A stretch of 63,107 bases of DNA, counting the filler, from Gonapodya sp. JEL0774 (Eukaryota): assembly GCA_027604505.1 (NCBI GenBank). It is 7 parts of 7 records of this genome, joined end to end, with 100 filler letters (N's around TTAATTAATTAA, not from the genome) between each part and the next. Parts side by side here need not be neighbours in the genome. Positions count along the whole stretch, not along the records: positions 9,085 to 18,052 come from JADIIX010000427.1; 6 more parts are not named here. One strand, 5' to 3'. The translations under genes were made by a program, and so were the position numbers. The notes under the pieces were generated by a model. The model searched no databases. It was given only the letters and a program-made list of their open reading frames with translations, and was not told where the DNA came from. Below are positions 5,409 through 46,347 of the stretch, piece after piece (position 1 is the stretch's first letter; every line of letters begins with the position of its first letter).

Positions 5409-6347
5409 GGCGGAACGTAACAGGATTTCCGGACGGTTGGGAGACGGCGCGAAGTCATTGATTGGGAAGAAATGAATGATGTTCGAGGACCCTGTGTGTC
5501 CCTGCCCGGCTAATCGGCTGCCAAATCAACCGCTATTCAAATCGCCCATCATGTGGCAAAAGGTACGATGTTCACTTTCATCGGTGATGGTCATAGGGTA
5601 TTGCTTTACTCCCGACAAAGAGATGTCTTCAGGTAGAACTTCCGGCTTCGCCGATACAGTTTGATGGAGCTCTCTCGATGACAATCGCGGTGCGTTTATA
5701 ATTATATAATCGATTACGATGTCCTAGTTCGCGAGAGGAAACCCCTTGTATTGCCTATTAATTCGTGGCATGTAATCACTCTACGATAGTGAGTCAGCAG
5801 GTCCGATAAATATCCTCTTCAATAAGTTGACTTGATTGCGGTGCCTGCACGGTACTTGTTTGATTGATGACCGGCAACCGACATCAACGCCCCACTTCAG
5901 CGCATAAAAGTAGCACATAGTACCAATACATACGCATTCCACTGTGTACTTGATCCGGCGCTGAAGGAGGAACTCCACCTGCTGCGTGTGTGCTCTTTAC
6001 GCCAAGCTGCAGATGGTGAGACGTCAACTAAGTATGCAAACTACAGATCACAGATCACCCACCCATTCGAAATAAATCACCGTGAGGTAAATGAAAATGT
6101 ATGGAGTGCCAGATGTCAGTGTAAAATGATCAGGGTCTGATTCTTGCCCCATTGCTTTTAACCATGCGTGCGCGGAAATAAGTGGTTTCATCTTCTGACA
6201 AATGCCCTTTATCTTTAGTGACAGTGGGACAGCACTTTGTGAGTATTCACCCGAGGCGATGCGTTCCTGACTTGCGAACTGAAAGGGAAGGTTTGGCCAC
6301 AGCACGGTTTTGCCGGACATCCTAGAACACCAAGAAATCCAGACAAA

Positions 6348-7313
6348 ATGATTCGAAATCTCCTGAAAACCATGGCCAAAGAAGCATTCAGTCTTGAATC
6401 GCCTTCTTCTGTCACTCGCCCGCCTCTCTCCTGCCCTCTTGAGTCCCTTCCCCTCGAACTTATCCATCGAATCCTCCGCTTCCTTCCACCAACAACCTTC
6501 TTCTCGACCATCCCCCGACTCTCTCGAACAATCCGCCAATGCGCTCTAGGCGCCATTCCTGGATGTCCCGGGAGAGAAGTGGTGATGGATTGCGAGCTCC
6601 GAGTGGTCACCGGTCCGTACCGCGACTTCATTGGGGAGATCAACGTTTTAGACCGATTTTGCGAGGTTCGACCGGCGGGGTGTCCATCTGTTTGGACAGC
6701 ATTGTGGGCATCGTGGTATCTGGACGTCACCATTGACGATCTGGTGGCGGCCGAGACTGAGGTGGAGTTGGAGCAGCTCGTGGGACGACGACTGCGAAGG
6801 GAGGTGGCCCTGAGCGCAACGAAAGCAAAGGCAACAACCCACGCATCGACGGCAAGGATCTTCTCTCGCACCCCCGACGTGCACGTGCTTTCAAGGCCTT
6901 CCCGTCTCACCGCCGACTCTTTGGATGCCCTTCAAGGACTGCGACTGGCGGCGCAAAAGGTCTGTGTTGTGTTCGGCTACGTGCGATACGAGTCCAGAGC
7001 AACGGCTGCAATCGCACTTGTTAGACTAGCACGTTTGATCCGTGCCCGTGGAGTGGTCGAAATGTCCATCATATCGGGATGGCCGATCTTCGTCGCAGCG
7101 GCAGAGATGGCGCAAGTGACGTTTTCTCCCGTCTCTGTGGTTCGTATTCACTCGAAAGGTTGTCCAAACTCTATCGAGGAGTTCTTTCCGTGGATTGTCA
7201 AGATATTCCCAGACGTGACCTTTATGACATGTGGTGACGGTGGAGTGAATCAACGAAAGTTCACCAAATTTTTAGAAGATAAAGAGAATCGAAGACGAGA
7301 CCAACAAACTTAA
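6348..7313 (+). CDS. F-box domain protein
   Basis: Single 321-aa ORF with LESLPLELIHRILRFLPP...IPRLSRTIRQ F-box motif near the N-terminus. Confidence 0.7.
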   Translation: MIRNLLKTMAKEAFSLESPSSVTRPPLSCPLESLPLELIHRILRFLPPTTFFSTIPRLSRTIRQCALGAIPGCPGREVVMDCELRVVTGPYRDFIGEINVLDRFCEVRPAGCPSVWTALWASWYLDVTIDDLVAAETEVELEQLVGRRLRREVALSATKAKATTHASTARIFSRTPDVHVLSRPSRLTADSLDALQGLRLAAQKVCVVFGYVRYESRATAAIALVRLARLIRARGVVEMSIISGWPIFVAAAEMAQVTFSPVSVVRIHSKGCPNSIEEFFPWIVKIFPDVTFMTCGDGGVNQRKFTKFLEDKENRRRDQQT

Positions 7314-9084: not shown

Positions 9085-9988
9085 GTGAATGTGCGAAGGT
9101 GAGCACACTCCTGGAAACTTTGCTGTTTGTCCACCCGTGGCTTACTTAGTACATTAAATTGAAAGGGAATTCAGGTCGCTGCGTCTGAGAATGGATACAC
9201 CCCAGAGCAGGCAGCCAGTATCACATATCGGCACCAAGTGCTTCTGAGCATGCTTTACAAGAAGAACCCAAGCATGGAGGTTCTTCAAGTCTTAGTGAGT
9301 GCAATTCTACCTTTTCTACTACTTCAAGTCGATCTCTTAGCATTGGTTTCTACTCAATTAAAGGTGTTCGTCACATTAGCTTTCGCTATGCTCTTGAGAG
9401 CAGACGAAGTCCTTGCCTTTCGTATGAAAGATATCGACTGCAAGCCAGGAGATAATGCGTTCTACATCAAGCTCAAGCAGAGGAAGAACATCAAGACCGG
9501 TAAACCTGCCACTGAATTCCGTCTCAACTACGGGATAAAACCAGAGGACTTCTGCCCGCATCTCATTCTGTCAAGGTATTTGTATGAGCTTGAAGAGCTT
9601 GGGATTGAGGAAGGTCCTCTATTTCCCCGTATTAACTGGAATCACGTGGAGAAGGGAAGCGAAGCAGTGAGTGACATTGATGTACTTCTCAGTTCTCACG
9701 CTGCCTCTCACGCATTTACCCACTCGAACTCAGGCATATGACGAAATGCTTGCAAAGCTCCGCGATGCCCTATCAGCAATTGGGGTGACAAATGTGAAGG
9801 ATTTTGGCACACACTCCATGCATCAAGGAGGCGTCAAGTTTTTACTTTCTCTGGGAGTACCTCCAACTGAGGTGGCGGAAATTGGAACATGGAAGATTAA
9901 CAGTCCAGCGTTTATGCGGTACGTAACCGAATGGTGTAACAAGGGCAAGCGGAAGGCAGGCGGGGCATTATGTGAATTGGTTCTTTGA
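9085..9988 (+). mobile_element. Intron-containing tyrosine recombinase (Crypton-like), 5'-truncated, probably catalytically degenerate
   Basis: AFAMLLRADEV (box I Arg), KQRKN (Lys), GPLFPRI, phase-0 intron 9667-9733, then FGTHSMHQGG, EIGTW, FMRYV (Tyr). The HxxR Arg is replaced by His. Confidence 0.85.
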
Positions 9989-10020
9989 TGGTATTTGTGT
10001 ATTCTTAAGAAAATAAACAA

Positions 10021-11287
10021 CTACAATGCTTTTGAAGCGCTCGTTACTTGTTTCCCATCTTGTTTGTCCATTGAGCATGGTCCTGGGAGCATATACCACG
10101 ACCTCCGGAGGCACTTCTTGATCTCCCATTCTCTCCCTTGTGACTGCAGGTCTAAGAATTCCTTCAAAGATTCTCGCTGAAGATGTTCCACAGCTTCCCG
10201 ATCCAATTGTTGCAGATGGCGAGCAATGGACCTGCGAAAGTTACTCGCTTTCTTGAATGGCACACCCGTTCTTTTATCCACATCTAAGCCCTTGCTGATG
10301 AGATAGCGAAGTGTCGCTGAAGGTGTTGGAGTCTCATGCAAGCACGTCTGCACCATCATTTCAAATCGTATTCCAGCACGCAACTGAATCAGCTCCGCTT
10401 CATTAAGCTTTCTTGCGATCTCCACTTTGCCTTGTGTCTCATTACGAAGGTTTTCGGTGTTGTAGCACATGACTTCAACTCCCTCTAGGTCAGCTGTCCA
10501 AATCTCGCCACGAGGAGCAATTCTGAAATGAGAATTAAAGTGGCTTGGCGACAAACAAAGGTGCAAGAACGTACTCACCTAGACGTACACTTTCCTGTGT
10601 GCTTTAAATGTTTCAGCGCGTCCTTTGTCCGCATGGAACTGTTTTTACGTTCGTATTCTGCGTAAAAGCTCCGGAAGTAGTATGCCAGCGAGCTAGTACC
10701 CCCATCACGAGACTCAAAAAGAGGGCCATGCGATGCTTCATTTTCATTCGCAGAGAGAAAGTTTAGTCCCGCAGCGGAGAGGGCCGATTTGATGTTCAAG
10801 AGGTCAGGTCCATTTCGTCCGAGTCTATCCAAGCGGTAGCACGCCAGTCCTGCAAGAAATCCCAGCTCCCCGTCTTCATTTGTGACAGTTCTCAGCGCCC
10901 GTTGCCTTGGTTTCGATGCATCTCGCGTGTAACGTGGTGCGAAAGCTCCCACAACACCGAGAATGCTAAGTGCCTTGTGCAATCCTGCCCGTTCATTGTT
11001 TCCTGGACCAGAGAGCACAGCGCCACTCATAACGTCGCTGCAGACTTCAGGGAGGAGGCTGAATCCTCGCCGGTGACATTCATTTCGAATCGAACAAAGC
11101 TGATGGGAGAGAAGTTGATCGAGGTCGCAATTTCGGTTGCAGCCAATGATCAAGCACCCACCTGTGACTCCAAAGAAACATTCAATCCACTATTGTCCTC
11201 CTTTGACAGCCGCAGGTAGGGAATGAAGACGAATTTCCGGCCTGGAACGATTGAATCTCCACCACGACGGCACAAAGCATCGTCCAT
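10021..11287 (-). CDS. Serine recombinase (resolvase catalytic domain plus C-terminal recombinase-like domain), 3 exons, 382 aa
   Basis: Exons 11287-11162, 11099-10579 and 10522-10021 join in frame. Motifs: IPYLRLSKED...SLESQ (catalytic Ser), SDVMSG, ERAGL, YRLDRLGRN, AEYERKNSSMRTKDAL. Confidence 0.88.
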
Positions 11288-11699
11288 CGAGGATCAAATT
11301 AAAATGGGAGGTGGAAAGGTATTGATTTGCAGTGCGCGTCTTTGATTCAGACGGGAATGGTGAGGACTGACACTTCGATCAGGTGTCGATTCAGTATCTA
11401 CCTTGGAAAACTTTAAATTCAGCTCCAACCGTACGCTTAGAGCTACTTTTTACTACTTAAAAATTGATGACTGACGCCTTTATGAGACAAGAAATGTCTG
11501 AGGAATGTCTTTTGCCGTGGAAAGAAGTTTGCACGAAAGCTACTTTGACTGGCGCTCTGCAAAAGTTTGCGAAATTTGACAGCGTGATAATAGGTACAAT
11601 GATTTTAAGCTAAGTACATCTATTGAAGAGAAATAAATACGTGAAAGGGGCAAACATTCTCCAAGTTGGGGTTAGCACGGGTGAGGCGGGGTGCAGGCC

Positions 11700-13311
11700 G
11701 GCCGCGCAGCAGCGCTTCATGGTCGAACATAGTCTAAGAGAACCTCCTGAAGCAGCTGTCAGCCAGTGTCATTCCCTACCAGGATGCAAACTCACCTTTG
11801 GAATCTTATTCAGAACGGCATAGAGTTTGTTCCAATTGGATAGATAGCCAAAGCTTCTCTCAAAGCTATCCTCGCTGTTGGCTTCAACAAACTCGTTGTA
11901 GGCCTCGGCTACGCACTAGTGAAAAGGTGTGGGAAAGGAAAAATAGTTGTACTCAGTTATCTATGTGTTGTTTCCCATTTGTGACCTTGCAAATGAACTT
12001 ACCTTAACTTTTGAGTGGCTCACCCTCACAGGCTTGCGCTCCTCACTAGTTAAGTTGCGCAACGGTGGGAGATTGCGGGTGGGTGATCCATGGTACCACC
12101 AAGTCCAAGCCTCCTTTGCTGACGAAGGAGCTGAGAACCTGATGACGCTCTGTGGGCCGGAAGTGGCGGAATGACTTGATTGGTTTGTTGCTGCCCCCGA
12201 ACTTGAACCATTGGGGACGTGCTCCAGCCCAATGCCTCCTGCAACTGCTTCTGCTGCAGATGCCCCTCCTTCCCCCACACCTGAGGCAGGCTCCACGCGT
12301 GAGGTTGCTGGTGTGGGTACTGCGTGAGCTGCAAGAGCCGTGAGGGCAGCAGTCGCTGCTGATGTGAAAGTGGGTGCGGCAGGGATGAGCATCCGAGCGA
12401 GGTCGGCCAGGGGTTGCAACTGGGCAACAAGGTCGTTGCGCACAAGCTGAACGTAGCTACTTGTAACTTGATTGACGAGGGTAGCTGACGACAGTTGACC
12501 TCCCCAGTTTTCATTGAATTGTGGGACGTGGTGTGGTTGAAAACCTTGGTTCGACATCCCCCATTGCTGCTGTTGGAAAGGAGGACTGCTGTGAGTTGGG
12601 AGGCCCATCGAGGTCTGCGCACACGGTATCTGGGGGGATGGTTGAGGTCCAAAAGATGGTGTACTGGCATGTTGGAACTCCGGTGTCGGAGCTGACATCT
12701 CGGGGGGAACTGCAGAATACGCTGCTTGCCCGCTCGATGGTACTGGCCCAGATTCTGGCTGAATCTGAAGAAGAGTTTCAGGGGTGGCTTGCGATGAACA
12801 GAGGCGTGGAAACACTCACCAACTGCTCCAATGAGTGCGATCCCACAATCCCCATCGGCTGCTCCACCAGCGTGAGAAGCTGGTCGGTATCCAGAGGACG
12901 CAGATACTCGGCAAACTTCCGTCTTGTATTGCTATTGTTACTGCTTGTGGGGAGCCCGATGGCGTTGCGGTGCTACAAGCTGTCCCGAGTGATGATTGCC
13001 CTTCGAATGGGTCTTTTTGGGGCAGTTCTGGATCCAGACGCCACAGCAAATCTCTGACTTTGGCGTGCGGCGAGCTCAGAAGGCTCCGTCGGGACTGTGA
13101 ATCCGGTGATGGGAGGCTGTTGTTGCGGCCGTTGTTGAGTTGTGAGCGGCGATTGGGACGAAAAGACCATTGTCGGGGGAATCGACGCCCCCCAGTTGCT
13201 TGGGAAGGGAATCGGACCAAGATTCGGCGAGAAAAAGACGTTGCTGTTTTGATTGCTGGTAGCGGGAAAGTTGGGAAAGTGGCCCGTGCTTTCCCATCTG
13301 GTAGTCATCAT
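11700..13311 (-). pseudogene. GCR1_C-like DNA-binding domain gene (Crypton-associated), with an in-frame stop
   Basis: FSAPSSAKEAWTWWYHGSPTRNLPPLRNL fits the GCR1_C pattern (P-x-T/S-V/A-x-x-x-W-x-x-W-x-x-G...PPL-x-x-L). A long Q/P/S-rich N-terminal region carries a premature TAG at 12973-12975, and the frame continues to a splice donor. The 3' end is approximate. Confidence 0.55.
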
Positions 13312-14199
13312 ATATTACAAAACACACTCAAAAAAATCCACGAAATCGTCACAAAGCCCCCGTACCGCCAATATCTCCCTCCCATCAATCAATTCGTCGA
13401 TTGCGTGGCCTCCCCGGCCTTCTCGGCGTCTCTATTGTCGTCAAGGGTTGCCACGTCCCTGTTCACAACAGACTCCGCTTCTCTCGCACAAATGGACTTC
13501 TTTGGAGGCCTGACATCGAAAAAAAAGTGTGATTGGTAGACTGAGGTGGGATTTGATGGAAATCGAGTGGATTATGCTGTGTGTGCCAGCAGCATTGGTT
13601 GGGATCCCGAGAACCAGCGGCGCTTTCATCAATTCAAAGAATGCACACCAAATTTATATACGCGATGGACGTTGGATTGATTTACTGAAGTCGTCATGGG
13701 TCTCAGGCTTGTGGAACGTCCACATTTCGATCTCAGATAATAGGCAATTTGAAACTGCACAGAAGACTCTGAAGGACCAAACAACGGCTTGTTTTTCTCA
13801 ATTCGAATGAACTTACTCTGGTGAAGTCAAATGATGCCACTGGGAAGACGAATGAACCGACCTTGCAAACCATAAGAGAAATGATGGACTACAGGCAGGA
13901 ACTGGAGAGCCATTAAAGTGCAACTTCAGAACAGTGTACCTCCATTCTTGTTGCTGGCAGGCCTCCCTTCACAGCTGCCAACAACTGCCCCTTGTGTTCC
14001 CTGTATCCCCCTCCTAGTCTGAGCCAAACACCACCACCTATTTGACTAGTGTAGCAGGGCTGACACTGGCAACAGTCGAAAGTGAAGGAAGAGATGTGGG
14101 GTATGATTGTATATTTGTAACTATCTGTCTATATATAAGAGAATGCCTTGAGGCCACCCTCAGACCCCCAGTGTCCTGTGGGATGTCAATACCACAACA

Positions 14200-15300
14200 C
14201 TAGAAGTCTTGATGAGGTGCATAAGGATTGGACAGATGTGGTGTTGTGTGGGTACCAGGCAGTGGAATATGACCCACAAAACTGGGGACACACTGCAAGG
14301 ATTCACCAAGGTATGGTTTTATGCCCATGTGGGTGTTCAGCCCACTGTGACCCTTACTGTAGTCCTGGTCTTCCTTCACTCACCCACCATGGCCCTGCTC
14401 CTTCAGTCCTTCACCCAACCTGCCGCTATGATCCCAGTCTTGCACCTGTCCCTCTTAATCAGAGCTTAGCCAAGTCAAGAGCTCAAATGGACCCTGCTGT
14501 CACAAGTACAGATAGAACTTATGCTTTTCTGACTGTCAAGAACCAAGCTGCAGAATTGGAATGTTGCACAAGGCGGATATACAGGTGCTCTTTGACACAC
14601 AGCTGAGATAAATGCACTATGACTTTTCAACAGTGGACTTGAGGGACTAGAGTCTCTTCATACTTTAGTGGTATTGGCGACTTGCTCTTTAGAGGCGTTA
14701 GACTTAGGAGATGACAATTTCCTTTAATAAATCTTGATAACCTTATGTAGTACCCCAATCCACCTCTGTTAGACATGTGTGGTGTGTGTTGTGTGAGTAT
14801 ATTTGTACAATAGCCACTGCACACAGATGAGTGCACAAGCTGCCCATTGGTCACTGAGCAGGTTCACAGAGGGAAGCTAGCAAGCAAGGAAACCCTGGCA
14901 GAGCAGAGTGGGGAAAGCTTTCTGTGACCAATCTCACCCTCATTTCCCCCAATTTTTGGTTGCATAGTGTACCCACAACAATGCTTGATTGCAAACACGA
15001 TAGTGGAGCATGTACAGTAGCAAACCACAGCCTCTACTTTCTAAACCTGTAGTTGTGTGATGTCCTGTACCAGACTGGACCTGTAGATGTAGGATGGATG
15101 TATGGTGTCTAGCCACTCATGTTAATGTTGCTGACATTATGACCAAGCCCAGACCGAAGTAGTCCTTTGAGCAACATCGATCATCAATGGGGATGTATTA
15201 CATGGCTACTTGAGATAATGGGAAACTTAACACTGAAGTGTTCTTTTCAGGGGGAGTGTTGAGATATGTTTGACATTTTGGACAGCTATAGCACCACAGG
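14200..15300 (+). mobile_element. Degenerate Ty1/Copia LTR retrotransposon, RT/RNase H end with PPT and 3' LTR start
   Basis: NVADIMTKPRPK*SFEQHRSSMG (Copia RNase H C-terminus, near 15123-15195). AGGGGGAG polypurine tract is followed immediately by TGTTGAG at 15257. The region is CpG-depleted with many stops. Confidence 0.7.
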
Positions 15301-15506
15301 GAGTTGGAATCCGGGAATAATTGATGGAGCAAAGTTACTTGCCATAAAATTTTCTACAAGTTTGCCTTTTGGCAGTTTTTTTCTAGCATTATTGGTTAGT
15401 GATCTACATAGGGAATGTGGATAACTTGGTGGGAACAGTGCTATGGTTGTCGACTAAAGTAGATTAAGCCTTTTCTGCACTACTTGTTAGAATGAGTGAA
15501 TTGTAA

Positions 15507-16056
15507 TCACTCAATTATCATGATGCTGTAATGTTTCCCAACTGGACAAGGTGTGTAGGCTGTTTGGAGCACTTTCCAGTTGTCTTCGGCAGATTTGCAA
15601 GCATCTAACAGCCTGTCAAGGTTGCAGGACACTACTGCAAAGATTGCAACACAGATTATGCAGTTTTTGTGCTCCCATAGTGTTGTTTTGGTGCTGTTGT
15701 CTGCTGGGTATGGCTCACTCCCATGTAAGATCTCCACATCCAATGCCTAAAACTCTACTTCTGAAACCTGTCAGCGTCCTCAAGAACACCCACAGCCTTT
15801 AAAATCCATCAGACGTGATGCAGTTACCGTCAAACATGATTGAGCGTGGGGATGTGGTGTGAAATCAATAGCGAGAGAGGAAATGTCCAATTTCGCCCAA
15901 ATCCACCATCTCTTGTTCTCCAGCTTCTCAAGAATGTCCTGGATGTGTTGGGGTGGGCTCATATTCTGTTGAGCAGTCACGATTTGCTTCTTCAAACACG
16001 CTGTACGGAACAAACTAAATCTAGGTTATCTGACAACTATAGCACTCTCCCCCTGA
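15507..16056 (-). mobile_element. Second degenerate Copia element: LTR end, PBS and gag remnant
   Basis: Minus strand ...CTCAACA|GAATATGAGCCC at 15967/15966-15955 resembles the fungal Copia PBS GGTTATGAGCCC. It is followed by gag-like ILEKLENK..W and LHGSEPYP...W...CKSAEDNWKVLQTAY. Confidence 0.6.
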
Positions 16057-16088
16057 TGGTGAACACATTTTAATTGAGGTATTCTGCT

Positions 16089-16796
16089 TTATTCTTTGAC
16101 ATCAGATCCACTTGTTTGTGAACAGTTCATCTCTAAGGGGTCCAAAAAATGCCACAAGGCAACTCCATAGTTTGGTTCGCAGACTGAATAGTTTGAGGTC
16201 TCATCAAGAAAGCATTCCAAAGTCTCTGTATTCCAGGTCAAAACTTTTGTAAACAGCTGAGTCTGGTTTGCATCCACTTTCTGCTGTATCATTGTTGAAA
16301 TCACCTGCATGATAGTTTCAAAGCTCACACAAATATTTTGCCTCTGTAATTCCACTCCAATTCCCGTTCTTATGTGCTTTTGTGGCCCTGGTGGTGCAAT
16401 CACTTCGGGTTTCAAATGCCGAAAGGTATTCTCCCTAGAGATGAGATAAAGTTCCAATCCTCTCACCTTATCTGCAAAACTTTCTATTTGCTGGAGATTT
16501 GATTCCATTCTGTGACATATCAATTCACTTTGAGAACTGGGTGAGGAGCCAGAAATGAGCAATAATACACTGTGCAGCACAATATTGAGACTTGAATCTG
16601 AAAAGTGGAGAATCCCACATAACTCTGACAACAAAAACGTAGTAGAAAGTGAGTCAGAGCCAATGTACTGCTCTGAGTTTAGCTCAATCAAGATTGTGCC
16701 TTTGATGTCTGAGTCAACTGCTTCAAAAATTGATTCTGCACTTGCACAGCCAATACTGCTTCCAGCACTGTGACTTTGTGAATGCAATTTCTGCAT
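16089..16796 (-). CDS. Unassigned 235-aa ORF within the TE-rich, CpG-depleted block
   Basis: Open frame only; no motif recognised. Confidence 0.25.
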   Translation of the reverse strand: MQKLHSQSHSAGSSIGCASAESIFEAVDSDIKGTILIELNSEQYIGSDSLSTTFLLSELCGILHFSDSSLNIVLHSVLLLISGSSPSSQSELICHRMESNLQQIESFADKVRGLELYLISRENTFRHLKPEVIAPPGPQKHIRTGIGVELQRQNICVSFETIMQVISTMIQQKVDANQTQLFTKVLTWNTETLECFLDETSNYSVCEPNYGVALWHFLDPLEMNCSQTSGSDVKE

Positions 16797-16997
16797 AAAT
16801 ATTAGTTACCTCTCCAAAGGACGTAACAGTCGCAGCATTTTTGGTCTTCAAACGGTTGCAAGACTGACTCTTGGAATGATTGATTAAATGCTCATTCCTG
16901 CATGTCACATTGATTGTACAAAGTTGCGTCTTGGAATATAAGCTTCTCAAATCATTTTTATTACGGTTCCAATTTCCACTCTGCTGGCTTTCGCGCC

Positions 16998-17170
16998 ATG
17001 ACGAGCCGAGCTCGAGCCGAGCATCAGACAAAAAATGCTCTTCTGAACGAGCCACCGAACATCACATTTAGGCTCGAGTCGAGCCTCGAGCATGTGAGTC
17101 CTCGGTCGAGCTCGAGCATCTCTTGAAGCTTCGAGCTTCCTCGATCATTCGAGCATTTTTCGAGCATCTT
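16998..17170. repeat. Cluster of short (T/C)CGAG(C/T) motifs, probable hAT subterminal repeats
   Basis: gagccgagctcgagccgagc, ctcgagtcgagcctcgagc, gtcgagctcgagc, ttcgagc in several copies, just 3' of the hAT transposase stop. Confidence 0.6.
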
Positions 17171-17215
17171 GATAAATGATATTTTGTAAACCTCCATGCA
17201 TATTGTGAAGCCTGC

Positions 17216-18052
17216 CTACTCCATATCACTATCTCCATCTGTAATATCATCTTCGGATTCATAATCCTCCCATTCATCATCTTTTGGACCATCTCCTCTC
17301 TTCCTTGCTTTGGCCTTTTCCTTCCACCAGTCACCCAACAGGACAAGCTTCCTAACATTCTCAGGCTTTAGACTACTTCTCTTCTTTGTTAAAACAGAGG
17401 ATGATGCTGAAAAGAGTCGCTCTGAGGGAACACTTGTTGCAGGGATGCACAGATAATCGCGGGCCATGCGAGCAAGGTCAGGGAGCTGACGGACCTCTGG
17501 GGCATTCTAGATACAAAAGTACGTGTTCCTCATCAGCAGAAAACATTTAACACAGGTGTAGATTGAGGACTTACTCTCCAGAATTCTAAGGGATCAGTTT
17601 TATCACTACTGACTCCAGCATCACGATAAAGAGCAAGTTGGTCCACAGACTCCAAGCGCCTCTGCTTTAGGTATGGCACCCCCTTGCTAGACCATGTAAA
17701 TCTCTTCCTCCCTCCATGGCTTTCTTCCTCTATAGTGGCTGGATCAGGGTTGATGCTCTCATAGTCCCGTTGGTAAATTCCTTTGATGCTCTCCCAAATT
17801 TCATCCGAATAAGCTTCCCAACCAGGGGTTTCGAAAAACTGAAATCTCTCCCTGGGGTCTAGAACTACGATGCAAATGGTATTATGCTGAAACAAGTAAG
17901 AAGCAACAAAGACAACACACTCACATACAGAAAGAGCAAAGATTGGAGACCTGTCAGTTTTGGCGTAATACTTGTGTAAAACCTCCAGACCAGCTGATGC
18001 AGCCAATCTAATCTCAGGCAGATCTGAAGTTTCTGCCCGGTCTTCCAGGAAT
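17216..18052 (-). mobile_element. hAT transposase, C-terminal part (dimerisation domain), with introns; truncated at scaffold edge
   Basis: LHKYY, VLDPR, DPLEFWR|..PDLARMARDYLCIPATSVPSERLFSASSSVLTKKRSSL: classic hAT signature. Confidence 0.92.
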
Positions 18053-36225: not shown

Positions 36226-38882
36226 GAGGCAAGATGGATGAGGGACGAGCGACGGCGGCCACGTACCGGTCCCGTTGTTGGTCCACCCGAGCACCGAGTT
36301 GAAGACGGCCCAGCCGTAGGCAGATGTGTTTTCGGGGTTGCAGCAGTTGAGGCTGTGTTCCCGAGTGTGTGTGTATGTATGTGGGGGGGGACACGATGCG
36401 GACACATGGTGAGTCACTCGTTCCACCTTCCCCGCGCGCCTGCCCCCCCCAAAAAAAAAAAAACAACCACCCCCGCTACCCACTGCCACAAGTTCCCTCC
36501 CACTCTATAACTCCCCGGTCCGTCACCGAGTTCGGCCACGTCGGCGCCGACCAGCTTGTTGTAGTTGTACCGCTCGAAATCGCCCACGGCTTTGGACAAC
36601 AGACCCGCGCCGAGGAGGAGGAGGAGTGCCGTGGAGACAACGAGGAAGAGGGAGAGGTCTAGAGGTGGGAGGAAAGCGGGGGGAAGGGGGGAAGGGGGGA
36701 AGGGGGAAGAGGAAACGATGAGTCCAGGGGGAACCCGGTGCCTCCACCTTTCCGATCGGACCCGCCACGAGCTCCCCGTCCGCCCTTTCCCCCCCCCCTC
36801 CCCCCCCCCCCCCCTGTACTCACTCAACCTCGACGAACTCCTATAAATCGCGTACCCTATCGCGAGTCCCAGCACTGCGCCGACGATGGCGGCGATGGGG
36901 ATGGACGCGGCGGGTTGGCCCAGCGACACGCCGCCCACGAAGACCACGGCTTCGAGACCCTCGCGGAGGACCGTGACCAGGGGGAGGATGAAGAGGGTCA
37001 GGCGGGAGGTGAGGGAGCCTAAGCGGGGTGGGGGGGACGGGAGGGAGGGTGAGTGGGTAGGGCAGGGAAAGGCGATGGCCGCTACAATGATGGGTGCTGG
37101 CGGCTCGCGGCGGTGCGCGGTGTGCGGTGTGTCGCTCTCTTACCCACCTTTTTCGACCTCCTTGCCGTCAGACCCGTCGACCACCTTGGACGCGAAGGCC
37201 CGCTTGAGTTTTATCCGCCACTTGATCTTGGCGCGGTCCATGCGGAGCATGGTGAGGCCCATGAGCCCTGTGCGGCGGGGTGCGGTGGTGATGCGGTGTG
37301 GGAAAATGGAAAAGGGGTAAAGAGGAAAGGGAGGAGCGGAGGGAGGGTGAGAAAGGGCGGACACGTGGTGGTGGGTAAAAGAACCAAGCACCACACGACG
37401 GGACGGCGGACGCGGCACAACAAACAAGGGCCGTGGCAAAAGGTTTCCCAAATGGGATAAGTCGATCGGGTCCATCCCATCCCGCAACATAAACCTCGAG
37501 TGGGCCTCCAGAGTCCGGCGGGACTCCCTTCCCCCCTTGGTCCCTCGTCCCTTCCCCCTCCGTCCCTCGGGTCGGGAGAGCTCGCTCGCTCACTATGACC
37601 GTACCCACATATCAACGCGCTGGCCAGCACCGAGAAGATGCCCTCCCACAGTTCTTCGGAGGCGCCCCAGAGGTTGTTGACCTCGACGTAGAACACGGCG
37701 AGGAAGGCGGCGCCGCTGTTGAGGGGGAGGGGGGGAGGGAAGGGGGTGTCACACAAAGTCCGTGAAAAGTCCAAAAGAGTCCATATGGACCCCCGCACAC
37801 AAAGTCCATTAAAAGTCCAAAGAGTCCATCTGGACCCCCGCACACAAAGTACATGAAAAGTCCAAAGAGTCCAAACGGGTCAAATGGTCCATATGGACCG
37901 CATGGACTGCAAAATTCAATCGCCTTCGACGGACTAGTCCATGAAAAGTCCAATTGGGTCAACTGGTCCATATGGACCGCAAAATTCAATCGCCTCCGAC
38001 GGACTAGTCCATGAAAAGTCCAAAGAGTCGAAATGGGTCATCTGGTCCCGCCGGTCCATATAATCGCCTCCGGGCACACACGTCCATGGAAAGAGCAAAT
38101 GGGTCACATGGTCCAATTGGGTCAACTGGTCCATATGGACCGCCAGGATAAATCGCCTCCGGCGGACTCTGCCCGTCGCTGACGCTTGGGCGAGGGGCCT
38201 CGCTGGCGCACGGCCCTTGAATCCGCTCGGGCGAGGCCGGCCTCCGGTTCGCTTCGCTCACCTCCGGCCGGCTCGCTTTCGCTCGCGCTGGGTCTATACT
38301 CACATACAAAAGGCAATGAGCAAACCGGTCATGGCGCCGGCAAAGATCTGGAACTTGAGTTTCTTGAGGAGCTGGGTGTCTGAGAGCTGAGCGTTCAAGA
38401 GCGACGAGGTCGGGGAAGACTTTTCGACTGCAGTCTTTGTCGTTCCGTCGTCCTCCGAGTCTGCTGCTGCGGAAGTTGTTGCTGGGTCGGGTTGGGGGAG
38501 GTCGCCGCCGGTAGATGGGGCGGGGAGGTCGAGAGCAGGATCGGTATCGGGTTGAGGTAGTATAGGCTGGATTGCCTTTTGGTCAATGACTTTTGCAATG
38601 TCTGTTCCGACGAGCTGTTCAGCGAGTGCGAGGAGAATGGACATGATGATTGCTGCCTCGAGGGTTTCGCGGAAGACGACGAAGAAGACTGAGGATGGGG
38701 AGAGTGGTGATGGTGGGGTGATGGGGGGGGAGTGTGGGAGGAGGGAAAGGGGGAGGGATGGGGGTGAGAGACGGGGGGAGCGGATGGGGGGAGAGAGGAG
38801 GGATGGGATGGGATGAGGGATTGGACAGAAAGAAACAAGAGGGGAGAACAGACTCACTGGGAACAGAGAAGTAGTTTCCCAT
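36226..38882 (-). CDS. FTR1: High-affinity iron permease (3'-truncated)
   Basis: MGNYFSVP|VFFVVFRETLEAAII (RExxE), EELWEGIFS, TMLRMDRAKIKWRIKL, second REGLEA, GDGPGSY, LNCCNPE..GWAVFNSVLGWTN. Confidence 0.95.
37750..38290 (-). repeat. Intronic repeat block in FTR1 (GGTCCATATGGACC palindromes plus a copy of the 68-bp unit)
   Basis: Reverse-complement copy of CGCCCAAGCGTCAGCGACGGGCAGAGTCCGCCGGAGGCGAT near 38152-38192. Repeated aaagtcc(a) and ggtccatatggacc motifs. Confidence 0.8.
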
Positions 38883-39766: not shown

Positions 39767-42700
39767 ANNNNNNNNNNCCTCCGCCCCCCCCCCCCCTCCC
39801 CCAGTCCCTCTCTTCCCTCCTCTTCCACTCCGCTTCTCGCGTCCTCCTCTTCCTCTCTTCTTCCCCCTCCTCCCTCGTCCACGCCGCCAAAAAAGAGATC
39901 TGGTACAACATCCAATACACAAGGGCGAATCCTGACGGTCTTTTCGACAGGAGGGTCATCGGCCTCAATGGCACGTGGCCACCTCCCGTCATTGACATTA
40001 CTCAGAACGATACTTTGATTGTTCATGCGGTGAGTGAGCCCGAGCGTCTCGCCCAAGCGTCAGCGACGGGCAGAGTCCGCCGGAGGCGATTGAACTTTGT
40101 GGTCCATATGACCCAGTCGCNNNNNNNNNNNNNNNNNNNNNNNNNNNNNNNNNNNNNNNNNNNNNNNNNNNNNNNNNNNNNNNNNNNNNNNNNNNTTTGT
40201 GGTCCATATGACCCAGTCGCCCAAGCGTCAGCGACGGGCACAGTCCGCCGGAGGCGATTGAATTTTGTGGTCCATATGACCCAGTCGCCCAAGCGTCAGC
40301 GACGGGCACAGTCCGCCGGAGGCGATTGAATTTTGTGGTCCATATGACCCAGTCGCCCAAGCGTCCGAGACGGGCAGAGTGTGCCGGAGGCGATTGAACT
40401 TTGCGGTCCATATGGGCCTGTGAGGCCAATATGGACCAAGTTGACCCGTTTGCTTGTTCATGGACTAGTCTTGTTGGCTTGGTTGGTTGGTTGCTTCGTT
40501 TGGCTCACAAAGTGTAACACCACCCCACCACCCACCACCCACGCCCCTCCCCCCCCGCCCTACACAGACCAACCTCCTCGACCTGCCCTCTGGCGTCCAC
40601 CACCACGGCATGTTCTTCAACAGGTCCTCGTGGTACGACGGTGCCACCAGCGTCACGCAGTGGTGAGTCAGTGGGGGCCAGCGTGAGCGCCACGCCCAAG
40701 CGTCAGCGACGGGCAGAGTCCGCCGGAGGCGATCGAAATTTGCGGTCCATATCGGCCGGTAAGGCCCATATGGACCATATGGACTTTTCATGGACGTTGC
40801 CGGAGGCGATTGAACGTTGGGGTCCATATATGGGGCAGGACCCTATCGACCCTATGGACTTTTCTCACGGGTGTAATTTTTTATTCCTGCCTTTCTTTCG
40901 TTCTCCACTCTGACCCTCTCTCTCCCCTCTTTACCCACCCCAGCGGCATCCCCACCAACGCCACCTACACCTACCTGGTCGACCCCACCACGTCGGGGCA
41001 AACCGGCACCTACTGGTACCACGGACACACGCGTGGTCAATACGTGGACGGGTTCCGCGCTCCCTTGATCATCCACAGGAACGGGGAAAAGACCAGAAAG
41101 GGAGCGGAATACGACGACGAGTACGTGCTGGCGCTGTTTGATTGGTACCACGACGAACACAAGGTGCTGTTGGGGCAGTTCTTGAGCGAGTCCAATCCAG
41201 GTAGGTTCAAGGGGCCGGAGGGGGGGTGGGGGGTACGCTAGATTGGTGGATGACATGTGATTGGTGTTTTTTAAAAATGGGTAAACATTGACTTGGGTTC
41301 AACATATGCCAGTAAGCGTATGCGATAAAGAGTAACCAAANNNNNNNNNNNNNNNNNNNNNNNNNNNNNNNNNNNNNNNNNNNNNNNNNNNNNNNNNNNN
41401 NCCCCCTCCCCTTCTCCGACCCCCCTCAGGCGGCGCCGAACCCGTCCCCAAATCCGCCGTGGCTGTCGTCGCCCACAACGGCACTTACCTCGCCGGTTTC
41501 TCCGAGAACTCCACGATCCCGTTCGTGCCGGGAAAGACGTACAGGTTGAGGATCATCAACATGTCGGCGTTGGGTGAGTTTGGGTTGCCCTGCCCGTGGG
41601 GGTGGGGGGGGGGGGGGAGGCAAGATTGATGGCTCACCTGTGTGTTGTGTTTTTTCCCCCTGGGTTCTCCTTTTCTTGGGTTCCACCTCTGACTTTGGGC
41701 GTATCCGCTACCGTGGACCCACATCTTTCCGGTCTTGCGTGATCGGATTCAGCAATGTTCTCCGTGTGGATCGACGGACACAACATCACCGTGATCGAAG
41801 GTACGTGGGCACGTGGGCATGTGGGATACTTCCCTTCTTTGTATGCTCATCCCCCCATCACATTCTCTGTCCTTTCCTTCGGACTCCCCCGCCAACCCCA
41901 CCATTCCCCCCACACGTCTAGTCGACGGCACCGACGTGGAACCATACCCGATCGACATGGTCACCCTTTCGGTGGCTCAGCGGATCTCGGTGCTGGTCAC
42001 GGCCAAGAACGAGACCGACAGTAACTGGTTGGTGCATATGAATATGGTGCGTTGAGGGGGGAGAGGGGGGGGGGGGGATGGGGAAGGGGGAATGGAAGAT
42101 TTGACACCGATTTTGATTTTGTGGTGACAGAGTCCCGACATGTTCGATTTCGTCCCGGACGATTTGCAACTGAGTGAGTACAACCATGGTTGTACCACAC
42201 CTCTCTCGTAAAAAAAAACAACTCACACACCTCTGCCTCCCCACTTCCCCTCCCTAGACATCACCACCACCATCCTCTACAACACCTCCTTCCCCACCGC
42301 CGACGGCACCACGGTCGACGAGTACCTCGAGTTCCCCGACGCCGACCTTGTCCCCATCGACGTGGAAGGCGAGGCCACCGCGGACGTGTCCATCACTCTG
42401 GCGGCCACCTTTGACACGGCCGACGACGGGACCAACCGGGCCTTTTTCAACGACATCACCTACGTGACCCCCCTCACGCCGACGCTGTTGACGGCCAGTA
42501 CCATGGGCAACTTGTCAAGTGATGTGAGGGTGTATGGGCAGACGAACACCTATGTGTTGGAGCTGGGGCAGAATATTGAGCTGTGAGTTGGTGGTGGTGG
42601 GGGAAGGGGCTCGGGTTGGAGCGTAGGCTCACACACCTATCACACACCTCGAATCACTCCTCGCCTCCTCCACCCCCCGCAGCGTCGTCGTCAACCTCGA

Positions 42701-44761: not shown

Positions 44762-45133
44762 TTATATTTCAGTGGTGCCTGTCCGTCGACCGGACAGTGC
44801 GTGGTATTGTAGTGCAGCCCAAAAGTGGGGGTGGTTGCGAAGATACCGCTGCCAAGAGTCATCAGTCCAGCGCCCACGTCTTTGAATGACGAGGGGAGGG
44901 ACGCCTTCGGCAAGCAGAAACATCGCCCCGCCCGAGCGAAAGCTGTGGCCTGTGAGGTCGATTTCAGGATAGAAGAGTCGGAGGCTCTCAAGGAACCACC
45001 GTCGTGTTGGTAGAGAGCCATCGGGCAAAGTCAGCGCGTATGTGGAAGATGGAGTGCAAATGCGTAAGTAATGCTGCCAAGCTTTTACAGGACAAGTGGC
45101 ATCAGTGGTTTGTAGAAGTGGGACTGTGAGGGG
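44762..45133 (-). mobile_element. DIRS/Ngaro-type tyrosine recombinase, C-terminal part
   Basis: TCPVKAWQHYL...LPTRRWF...LTGHSFRSGGA...IQRRGRWTDDSWQRYLR with intact HxxR, GRW and Tyr. Truncated at the linker. Confidence 0.85.
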
Positions 45134-46347
45134 NNNNNNNNNNNNNNNNNNNNNNNNNNNNNNNNNNNNNNNNNNNNTTAATTAATTAANNNNNNNNNNN
45201 NNNNNNNNNNNNNNNNNNNNNNNNNNNNNNNNNACAAATGTCCATGGATCAGGTAAGTTACAAAATTAATTTTCCGTCGTTTTTCTTTTGAATTCACGCA
45301 TCTTCCTTGTGAGCTACGTGCCCGTCATGCTGGGATGTCCCGCTACGCTCCCTGGGGTTTTCGCTTTGAGGCTACAATGCCAGATGGGACAATAAGGCGA
45401 TCACACAATTCTTCGAGGCTCCATGGACGTCTTGGTGATCTACGTCTGGTTCCAGATCGTGTGGAGCAGGAGCAGATGGATTGGTTGGTTTGTTTGGTGA
45501 TGCGAGCCATTAGCCGAACCTGGTTTGGTAAGTTTTGGTGGTGGATGAGGGGGAGAAATAATGAATTATTTAGAAAATATTTTTGGCAGGTTTTACTTGT
45601 TACGAAGATATCACCCCACGAGTCCTCCGCTGCTGGCTTGAAGTTCTCGGGCTTGGTACCACAACTCGCAACCCCACAGGTGAAACAATGCCAATGCTAT
45701 TTTATGGGAATCTGAAGAGACAGCTCCTGGCATATGTTACTTACTGTGAGAGGAATGATCGTGAGGAATTTCAGAGGCGGTTGGCCCATGTGATGACTTG
45801 GAACAACATGATCAATGACGGGGTTTTCAACGGAGAGAAAGATTAAAGTCTAGAATTTGTGGAAATCAGAATCAATAGCTAGAATAGTTTTGAAGTTTTG
45901 TGACCGTCTGTGAATATGAGATACAGTTTTGAAAGTAATTGTCGAACGTGCGAAATTGATCGCGCAGCAACTCATGATGGCAAGTAGTGAGTGGCCCGTC
46001 ACTCTCCCAAAGAGACTACACTACTTCTAGTAGCGAAACAAATTCTGTATGAGATATGTTGTTGTAATCATTCTGTTGCATTACAAAGAACCGAAACGAA
46101 ACGTAGCAACTGGAACTCTACATCACAAAGTTGGTTGTGATGGAGCCGCAACACTGCGGCGTTTTTTGCTACCCATGACGCAAACTGATAGTATGTGGTG
46201 CTCCAGGCGTTCTTTGGTGCTTTGGGGCCGTATTTTATACATCCATAGAGAGCTGCACGCACAAGTGAGAGACAAGCTCCGTGAAATAGAACCAGACGGA
46301 ATCAAATGTTCGCTCACTTGAAAATAAAACATTCAAATGTATTACTG

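Follow-up and report, generated by a model that had tools for sequence, protein, structure and literature searches.

Predicted intron-bearing serine recombinases unlike IS607 in chytrids, and their possible place in a multi-gene mobile element of Gonapodya

A 2026 review names IS607EU as the sole known eukaryotic DNA transposon using a serine recombinase (SR) (PMC13565253), and the other SRs reported in eukaryotes are of the IS607 type (PMC3627910, PMC10711439, PMC2715888, PMC3673617); IS607 TnpA bears an N-terminal DNA-binding domain (PMC6188088). Among elements with a tyrosine recombinase (YR), CryptonF holds YR and a GCR1_C domain within one protein (Kojima & Jurka 2011, PMC3212892), and circle excision and integration have been proposed or observed for Cryptons (PMC9977147). 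We analyzed a 63,107-nt stretch of Gonapodya sp. JEL0774 DNA (assembly GCA_027604505.1), hereafter the window, which consists of seven contigs, each of 8.9-9.0 kb, linked by N44-spacer-N44. A YR gene, an SR gene and a third gene all lie on the second contig, 9085-18052 (8,968 bp). The chief result, drawn from sequence comparison, is a small family of intact, predicted intron-bearing chytrid SRs, unlike IS607, to which the window SR belongs. The intact window gene probably points to a type of mobile DNA not yet described.

10021..11287, minus strand: intact SR gene, 382 aa (Resolvase match, motifs, alignment of relatives)

The SR gene is predicted to consist of three exons (11287-11162, 11099-10579 and 10522-10021) separated by introns of 62 and 56 nt, with no stop in frame. 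Exon 2 matches Pfam Resolvase with an E value of 5e-13, which passes the curated cut-off. Exon 1 contains YLRLS, which lines up with the Y-x-R-x-S of all seven homologues and places the catalytic Ser codon at 11206-11204. The predicted protein also has a D-R-x-x-R motif (YRLDRLGR), a long helix E and a C-terminal domain of about 165 aa. By these sequence features the window SR has the catalytic motifs of the serine recombinase superfamily, Y-x-R-x-S and D-R-x-x-R. The splice model is supported by the alignment of the spliced protein with its relative P0002 (KAJ3335053.1; 32% identity over 342 columns), since this alignment runs over both exon junctions. The introns of all three genes are predictions, and several of their junctions are shared by a database protein, P0001, which is a model of 12557-10021 identical to SR exon 2 and bears the name of a Gonapodya protein at its source. 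The P0001 gene model was rejected: it runs from the third gene straight into SR exon 2 and omits the exon with the catalytic Ser. No one- or two-intron route with consensus-like donors joins the third gene to the SR while retaining the Ser exon, so that P0001 is likely a mis-annotation. A Chytridium model, P0006 (KAI8851947.1), could likewise consist of two genes joined.

A full HMMER scan with P0001 against 1.84 billion representatives (E<=0.001) returned nine matches: P0001 itself, seven SRs and one oomycete protein. Two of the seven SRs are named as Gonapodya, two as Chytridium lagenaria, and three come without an organism. The closest paralogues of the window SR are P0002 and P0009 (KAJ3336469.1), encoded on contigs of 10,027 and 36,791 bp. 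At least four SR loci are present in this organism, three of the four on contigs of 9-10 kb. For a quick tree, the window SR and six relatives were combined with 60 non-redundant prokaryotic or phage SRs out of 152 hits of a hidden Markov model (HMM); P0009 was omitted as degenerate, and P0006 was cut down to its SR half. The window SR and its six relatives formed a single clade with respect to the 60 others, with a Shimodaira-Hasegawa-like approximate likelihood ratio (SH-aLRT) support of 95. Other searches returned more distant proteins or none. An alignment search with the SR found P0004 (KAI8851353.1), P0001 and 58 further SRs, mostly prokaryotic, and a word-based protein search with exon 2, an insensitive method, had P0001 as its sole match. 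Scans of viral contigs gave nothing, or phage integrases (80 loci), with no fungal context. From a metagenome contig scan came 13 loci with identities of 24-34%; the ones that entered the tree did not join the chytrid clade. P0002 had no phage match and no useful sequence match in the PDB.

With IS607 and IS607EU (PMC3627910, PMC6188088, PMC3673617, PMC13565253) the window SR shares a serine recombinase catalytic domain in a eukaryote and the lack of terminal inverted repeats. It differs in layout, having no N-terminal winged-helix or helix-turn-helix (HTH) domain: the catalytic motif begins as early as residue 24, leaving 359 residues from motif to end, and in the relatives P0002, P0008 and P0003 it is found at residues 14, 32 and 40. 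A Pfam search of the SR relatives for HTH and MerR domains gave no match. The IS607 model of NCBIfam, NF033518, has a cut-off of 110; P0008 reached 45 bits, P0003 18 bits, and P0001 and P0002 did not match. No TnpB/Fanzor was found among the 101 open reading frames (ORFs) of the contig, a weaker test, as this gene is often lost from IS607 copies.

The large serine recombinases (Bxb1, phiC31, TP901-1, CcrA/B) have the same order as the chytrid SRs, namely an N-terminal catalytic domain, a long helix E and a P-x-G motif just after it, and the C-terminal domain of the chytrid SRs weakly resembles their recombinase domain. Large serine recombinases are further characterized by directional attP x attB recombination. 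The chytrid SRs differ by their predicted spliceosomal introns, an identity of about 25-30% and a separate clade in the quick tree. Neither the recombinase domain (PF07508) nor the zinc-ribbon (PF13408) of Pfam matched the window SR or its relatives, and no zinc-ribbon/coiled-coil region was detected in these proteins of 290-380 aa. For a structure model of P0003 (predicted local distance difference test score, pLDDT, 61.6), the top seven Foldseek matches in the PDB were large serine integrases, IS607 TnpA ranking 47 and 50. Its catalytic domain aligned with TP901-1 at Z 15.7 (root-mean-square deviation, rmsd, 4.1; 132 aligned) and with ISC1926 TnpA at Z 13.8; on these models, the catalytic-domain fold alone does not separate the integrase from the IS607 type. 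The C-terminal domain of the window SR, modelled with a pLDDT of 76.5, had no Foldseek match in the PDB at E<=0.001 and a best Z of 5.2, neither of which indicates a new fold. Proteins of about 260 aa with Resolvase and Recombinase domains, from phages and giant viruses, were among the best fold and Atlas matches of the chytrid SRs. The Atlas neighbours of P0002 were viral Resolvase(+Recombinase) clusters of this size, one of them mostly Nucleocytoviricota, and in a BFVD fold search giant-virus SRs occupied ranks 4-7 and 9.

The surroundings of the SR gene on the second contig are as follows.

9085..9988, plus strand: YR gene, 5' part lost at the contig start (Pfam, match to a YR on the fifth contig, motif residues)
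9989..10020, no strand: AT-rich gap of 32 bp between convergent stop codons (YR and SR stop positions)
11288..11716, no strand: spacer of about 430 bp, likely the SR promoter region
11717..13311, minus strand: third gene, about 467 codons, last exon uncertain (predicted exons, repeat-domain match)
13800..13900, no strand: right-hand limit of the block, approximate (drop in CpG density at about 13860)

This arrangement agrees with the first-pass annotation, in which the plus-strand YR stops at 9988 and the minus-strand SR at 10021, the two converging across 32 bp on a single contig, with a third gene on the SR strand a few hundred bp upstream. Introns had been claimed for all three genes, and are indeed predicted: they are short (49-87 nt), GT..AG, and restore the frame. 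The annotation's SR identity is borne out by the Pfam match and the motifs; its YR identity stands on weaker ground. The predicted YR exons (9087-9098, 9175-9294, 9364-9666 and 9734-9988) give 229 codons with no stop. They match Pfam Phage_integrase at an E value of 0.045, under the cut-off, and a PHROG integrase at 0.29, and the comparison with one phage integrase was not significant (351 of 1000 shuffles as high). The tail of a YR on the fifth contig, however, aligned at 40% identity over 42 aa, a score reached by none of 1000 shuffles. With the first catalytic Arg (9397), His (9812), Trp (9890) and Tyr (9920) in place, we regard the gene at 9085-9988 as a YR with moderate confidence. A word-based search with YR exon 2 found no match among proteins longer than 336 aa, the range covered, and the YR exons had no useful sequence match in the PDB.

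The second catalytic Arg of the YR is a His (CAT, 9821). The H-x-x-R region, CAC TCC ATG CAT CAA, reads H-S-M-H-Q where the fifth-contig YR reads H-S-F-R-S, and the R-H-R-Y tetrad of Crypton YRs is incomplete in this copy. We infer that two Arg codons were changed by CpG decay and that the copy is probably catalytically impaired. The fifth-contig sequence itself (44762-45133, minus strand) is the C-terminal end of a DIRS/Ngaro-looking YR with H-S-F-R intact, and it has no plasmid match. Through this comparison, the window YR has a tail similar to the H-S-x-R-x-G-G ... G-x-W ... Y of DIRS/Ngaro YRs (PMC3783388). It is set apart from them by three predicted introns, and neither reverse transcriptase/RNase H nor split or inverted terminal repeats of the DIRS/Ngaro kind are seen on the visible contig, though the DNA upstream of the YR lies past the contig end. 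In an earlier survey, two other chytrids yielded no YR retrotransposons (PMC3783388).

The third gene had been called GCR1_C-like, and this was not confirmed. Pfam GCR1_C matched neither P0001, nor the third-gene exons, nor any of the 101 contig ORFs of >=45 aa, with the reservation that the domain is split over exons and that HMMER filters drop weak hits. The N-terminus of the predicted protein is of low complexity (P/Q/S/A), and its C-terminal W-x-W-W-x-x-G domain corresponds to a W-x-x-W-F-x-G repeat present six times in an Aphanomyces astaci protein (phmmer E 2.4e-5). An HMM of the Aphanomyces repeats, run on 1591 window ORFs, picked out the third gene at E 1.7e-9. Oomycete repeat proteins have this domain in common with the third gene; the Atlas had no usable match for it. 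The W-x-W-W-x-x-G motif may resemble GCR1_C. An in-frame TAG interrupts the third gene at 12975-12973. The first-pass annotation had overlooked this TAG, the contig joins, the truncation of the YR at 9085 and its H-S-M-H.

The label Crypton-like, in its specific sense, is not supported either. CryptonF (PMC3212892; Lopez-Cortegano et al. 2023, PMC9977147) and the present locus share a fungal host, an intron-bearing YR and the lack of terminal inverted repeats, and site-specific excision and integration are the expected mode in both. However, the CryptonF YR and GCR1_C form one protein, whereas here the third gene is separate from the YR, antisense to it, 1.7 kb off and unmatched by Pfam GCR1_C. 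The additional genes that the available text describes for Cryptons encode a C48 peptidase, a DDE transposase or an HTH protein, and none encodes an SR (PMC3212892, PMC9977147). Cryptons also have terminal direct repeats of 4-6 bp; the left end of the present copy, where one of these would lie, is lost at the contig edge. Since the third gene is separate from and antisense to the YR, neither a Crypton nor the alternative that had been offered, an SR element inserted in a standard Crypton, fits.

CpG density is 47.7 per kb up to about 13860 and 8.9 per kb beyond it, a change point (about 13865) whose strength none of 300 shuffles equalled. Within 9085-13860 there is no internal change point (52 of 300 shuffles equally strong); the CpG profile is even across YR, SR and third gene, and the YR-SR junction is without compositional break. 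The uniform CpG content and the sharp edge against older decayed DNA suggest that the block 9085-~13860 is one mobile unit. CpG observed/expected (o/e) ratios at codon boundaries are 0.80, 0.67 and 0.75 for the YR, SR and third gene, as compared with 1.04 for an F-box gene on the first contig, a 356-aa ORF at 6243-7313 (plus strand) with a weak F-box match (E 0.006). The use of the differences among 0.80, 0.67 and 0.75 as a dating tool was dropped. Beyond the block come CpG-decayed DNA and then a hAT transposase end. Strong CpG depletion at 13860-16700 (o/e down to 0.05) suggests methylation-driven decay of old repeats, and this stretch includes a 238-aa ORF without Pfam match (16089-16805, minus strand). 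The hAT transposase 3' end is at 17219-18052 (minus strand, Pfam E 7.5e-16); a CpG-rich patch at 17020-17160, in which the word TCGAGC recurs and a 21-nt inverted repeat lies, is likely its subterminal end.

The explanation we prefer, at somewhat short of even chance, is a multi-gene mobile element that moves by means of the SR; the block 9085-~13860 would be a single copy of it, now in decay, with the YR and the third gene as likely variable partners. The SR is intact, whereas the YR is without its second catalytic Arg and the third gene carries a stop. Circle excision and short-site integration are established for serine integrases. The predicted working enzyme is the intact SR, which would be expressed after splicing. 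By analogy, its C-terminal domain would bind short sites at the element ends, and the enzyme would cut and rotate strands, free a circle and join this circle to a new short target. Such end binding and strand rotation would do without terminal inverted repeats. As for the YR and third gene, this lineage may have acquired them by capture from Crypton-type DNA or by fusion with it, and they would now be eroding, probably through C-to-T change.

A second SR locus in the window bears on the choice of partners.

45234..45846, plus strand: second SR paralogue, 3' part, at the start of the sixth contig, of a different subfamily (HMM E 2e-9)

About 500 bp past this paralogue lies a convergent low-complexity/zinc-knuckle gene (46348-~47900, minus strand), followed by a cysteine-rich multi-exon gene (48008-~50480, minus strand). 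Neither tblastn nor a motif search found a YR in the ~8.3 kb downstream of the paralogue. The zinc-knuckle stretch matched the N-terminal half of P0006 (13 of 27 identities, pairwise E 5e-5), a hint that SRs of this subfamily may travel with another partner. The ORFs of the cysteine-rich gene have no Pfam match; we take the gene to be like the CxC domains of KDZ transposons. The SR, zinc-knuckle and cysteine-rich genes possibly form another SR-bearing element. An apparent YR-SR adjacency at 44765-45846 was discarded as an artefact, as it spans the spacer between two contigs.

Several points weigh against our preferred explanation and the family on which it rests. Our quick tree has long branches, P0002 among them, and lacks rows for IS607 and giant viruses. 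Of the seven SR relatives, three are unnamed and perhaps not fungal. The closest paralogue is just 32% identical to the window SR, which also fits old, immobile genes. The hhalign comparison of the SR C-terminal domain with the recombinase domain scored 14.6, above all 30 column shuffles, but is weak in E value (0.076) and probability (0.7%), and its structural match to 9dxd_A 174-309 is weak (Z 4.1, rmsd 5.5, 94 aligned, rank 8). The zinc-knuckle match covers 27 residues only. The partner test comes down to the one readable locus, which belongs to another SR subfamily and is read on the downstream side alone, where a divergent YR could escape. Finally, the window shows no direct sign of mobility (ends, near-identical second copy, empty site), the left end being lost at the contig edge.

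Rather than being variable partners, the YR, SR and third gene could be standard in one subfamily, as a conserved two-recombinase element of which this copy is starting to decay; one recombinase would excise or integrate, the other resolve circles or multimers. The 32-bp tail-to-tail gap is nearly too small for an element end, the CpG profile is even over all three genes, and the locus that speaks on partners is of another subfamily than the closest paralogues, P0002 and P0009. However, no second locus carries both genes, the one readable SR locus has no YR downstream, and the YR has lost its catalytic Arg while the SR is intact. We consider this explanation rather unlikely. The first-pass annotation had proposed a mobile element with two recombinases. 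The mobile part is plausible in view of the 32-bp gap, the uniform CpG, the sharp outer edge, the transposon-rich setting and the at least four SR loci; the two-recombinase part finds no second locus in its support. As to the annotation's question of synteny elsewhere, the gene downstream of the SR is a different one at the only other locus that could be read, though the SR there is of a different subfamily.

Alternatively, an SR element, which may or may not include the third gene, could lie beside the 3' end of an unrelated YR element of Crypton or DIRS/Ngaro type. Recombinase genes are common in the window (SR on two of seven contigs, YR likewise on two), so that chance YR-SR adjacency is not negligible, and hAT remains are found on the same contig. 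The YR's sole significant match is the DIRS/Ngaro-looking YR, and its upstream DNA is missing. Yet the junction would have to lie within 32 bp of both stop codons, at a place without compositional break, and the repeats that flank the SR are short and no more than expected by chance. Two neighbouring elements seem unlikely to us.

The SR could also be immobile: a gene horizontally acquired from bacteria, phage or giant virus, provided with introns since then and retained by the host, the DNA beside it being transposon debris. This would suit the intact frame, the introns and the deep paralogue divergence, as well as the duplicated, non-polymorphic IS607-type SR genes retained by yeasts (PMC2715888) and the giant-virus ranks in BFVD, giant viruses being known to infect zoosporic fungi (PMC13533422). 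We hold it to be quite improbable; against it stand the 9-10 kb contigs of three of four loci, the lack of recognisable host genes at both readable loci, a codon-boundary CpG loss like that of the damaged neighbours (o/e 0.67 versus 1.04 in the F-box gene) and the patchy distribution.

The accessible text of PMC13465315 (in which the word "serine" is absent), PMC3783388, PMC6431247 and PMC13533422 describes no such element. The available literature on chytrid serine recombinases and Gonapodya transposable elements likewise holds no description of the SR family, Repbase, subscription journals and supplements being outside the scope. What deserves to be followed up is the family of non-IS607 SRs in chytrids; the two-recombinase element is unproven. 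If confirmed, the family would represent a second, independent uptake of serine recombinases by eukaryotic mobile DNA, and natural eukaryote-adapted relatives of the serine integrases used for genome engineering. Were the YR pairing conserved, one element would carry two unrelated recombinases, for which the literature covered, in its accessible parts, offers no eukaryotic precedent. The wider proposal of a new chytrid transposon superfamily with a spliced integrase-like SR, one subfamily also using a YR, is doubtful at present.

Elsewhere in the window, the GC-rich fifth contig contains arrays of 45-, 68- and 70-bp repeats at 37750-38200 and 40028-40870, with inverted copies about 2 kb apart.

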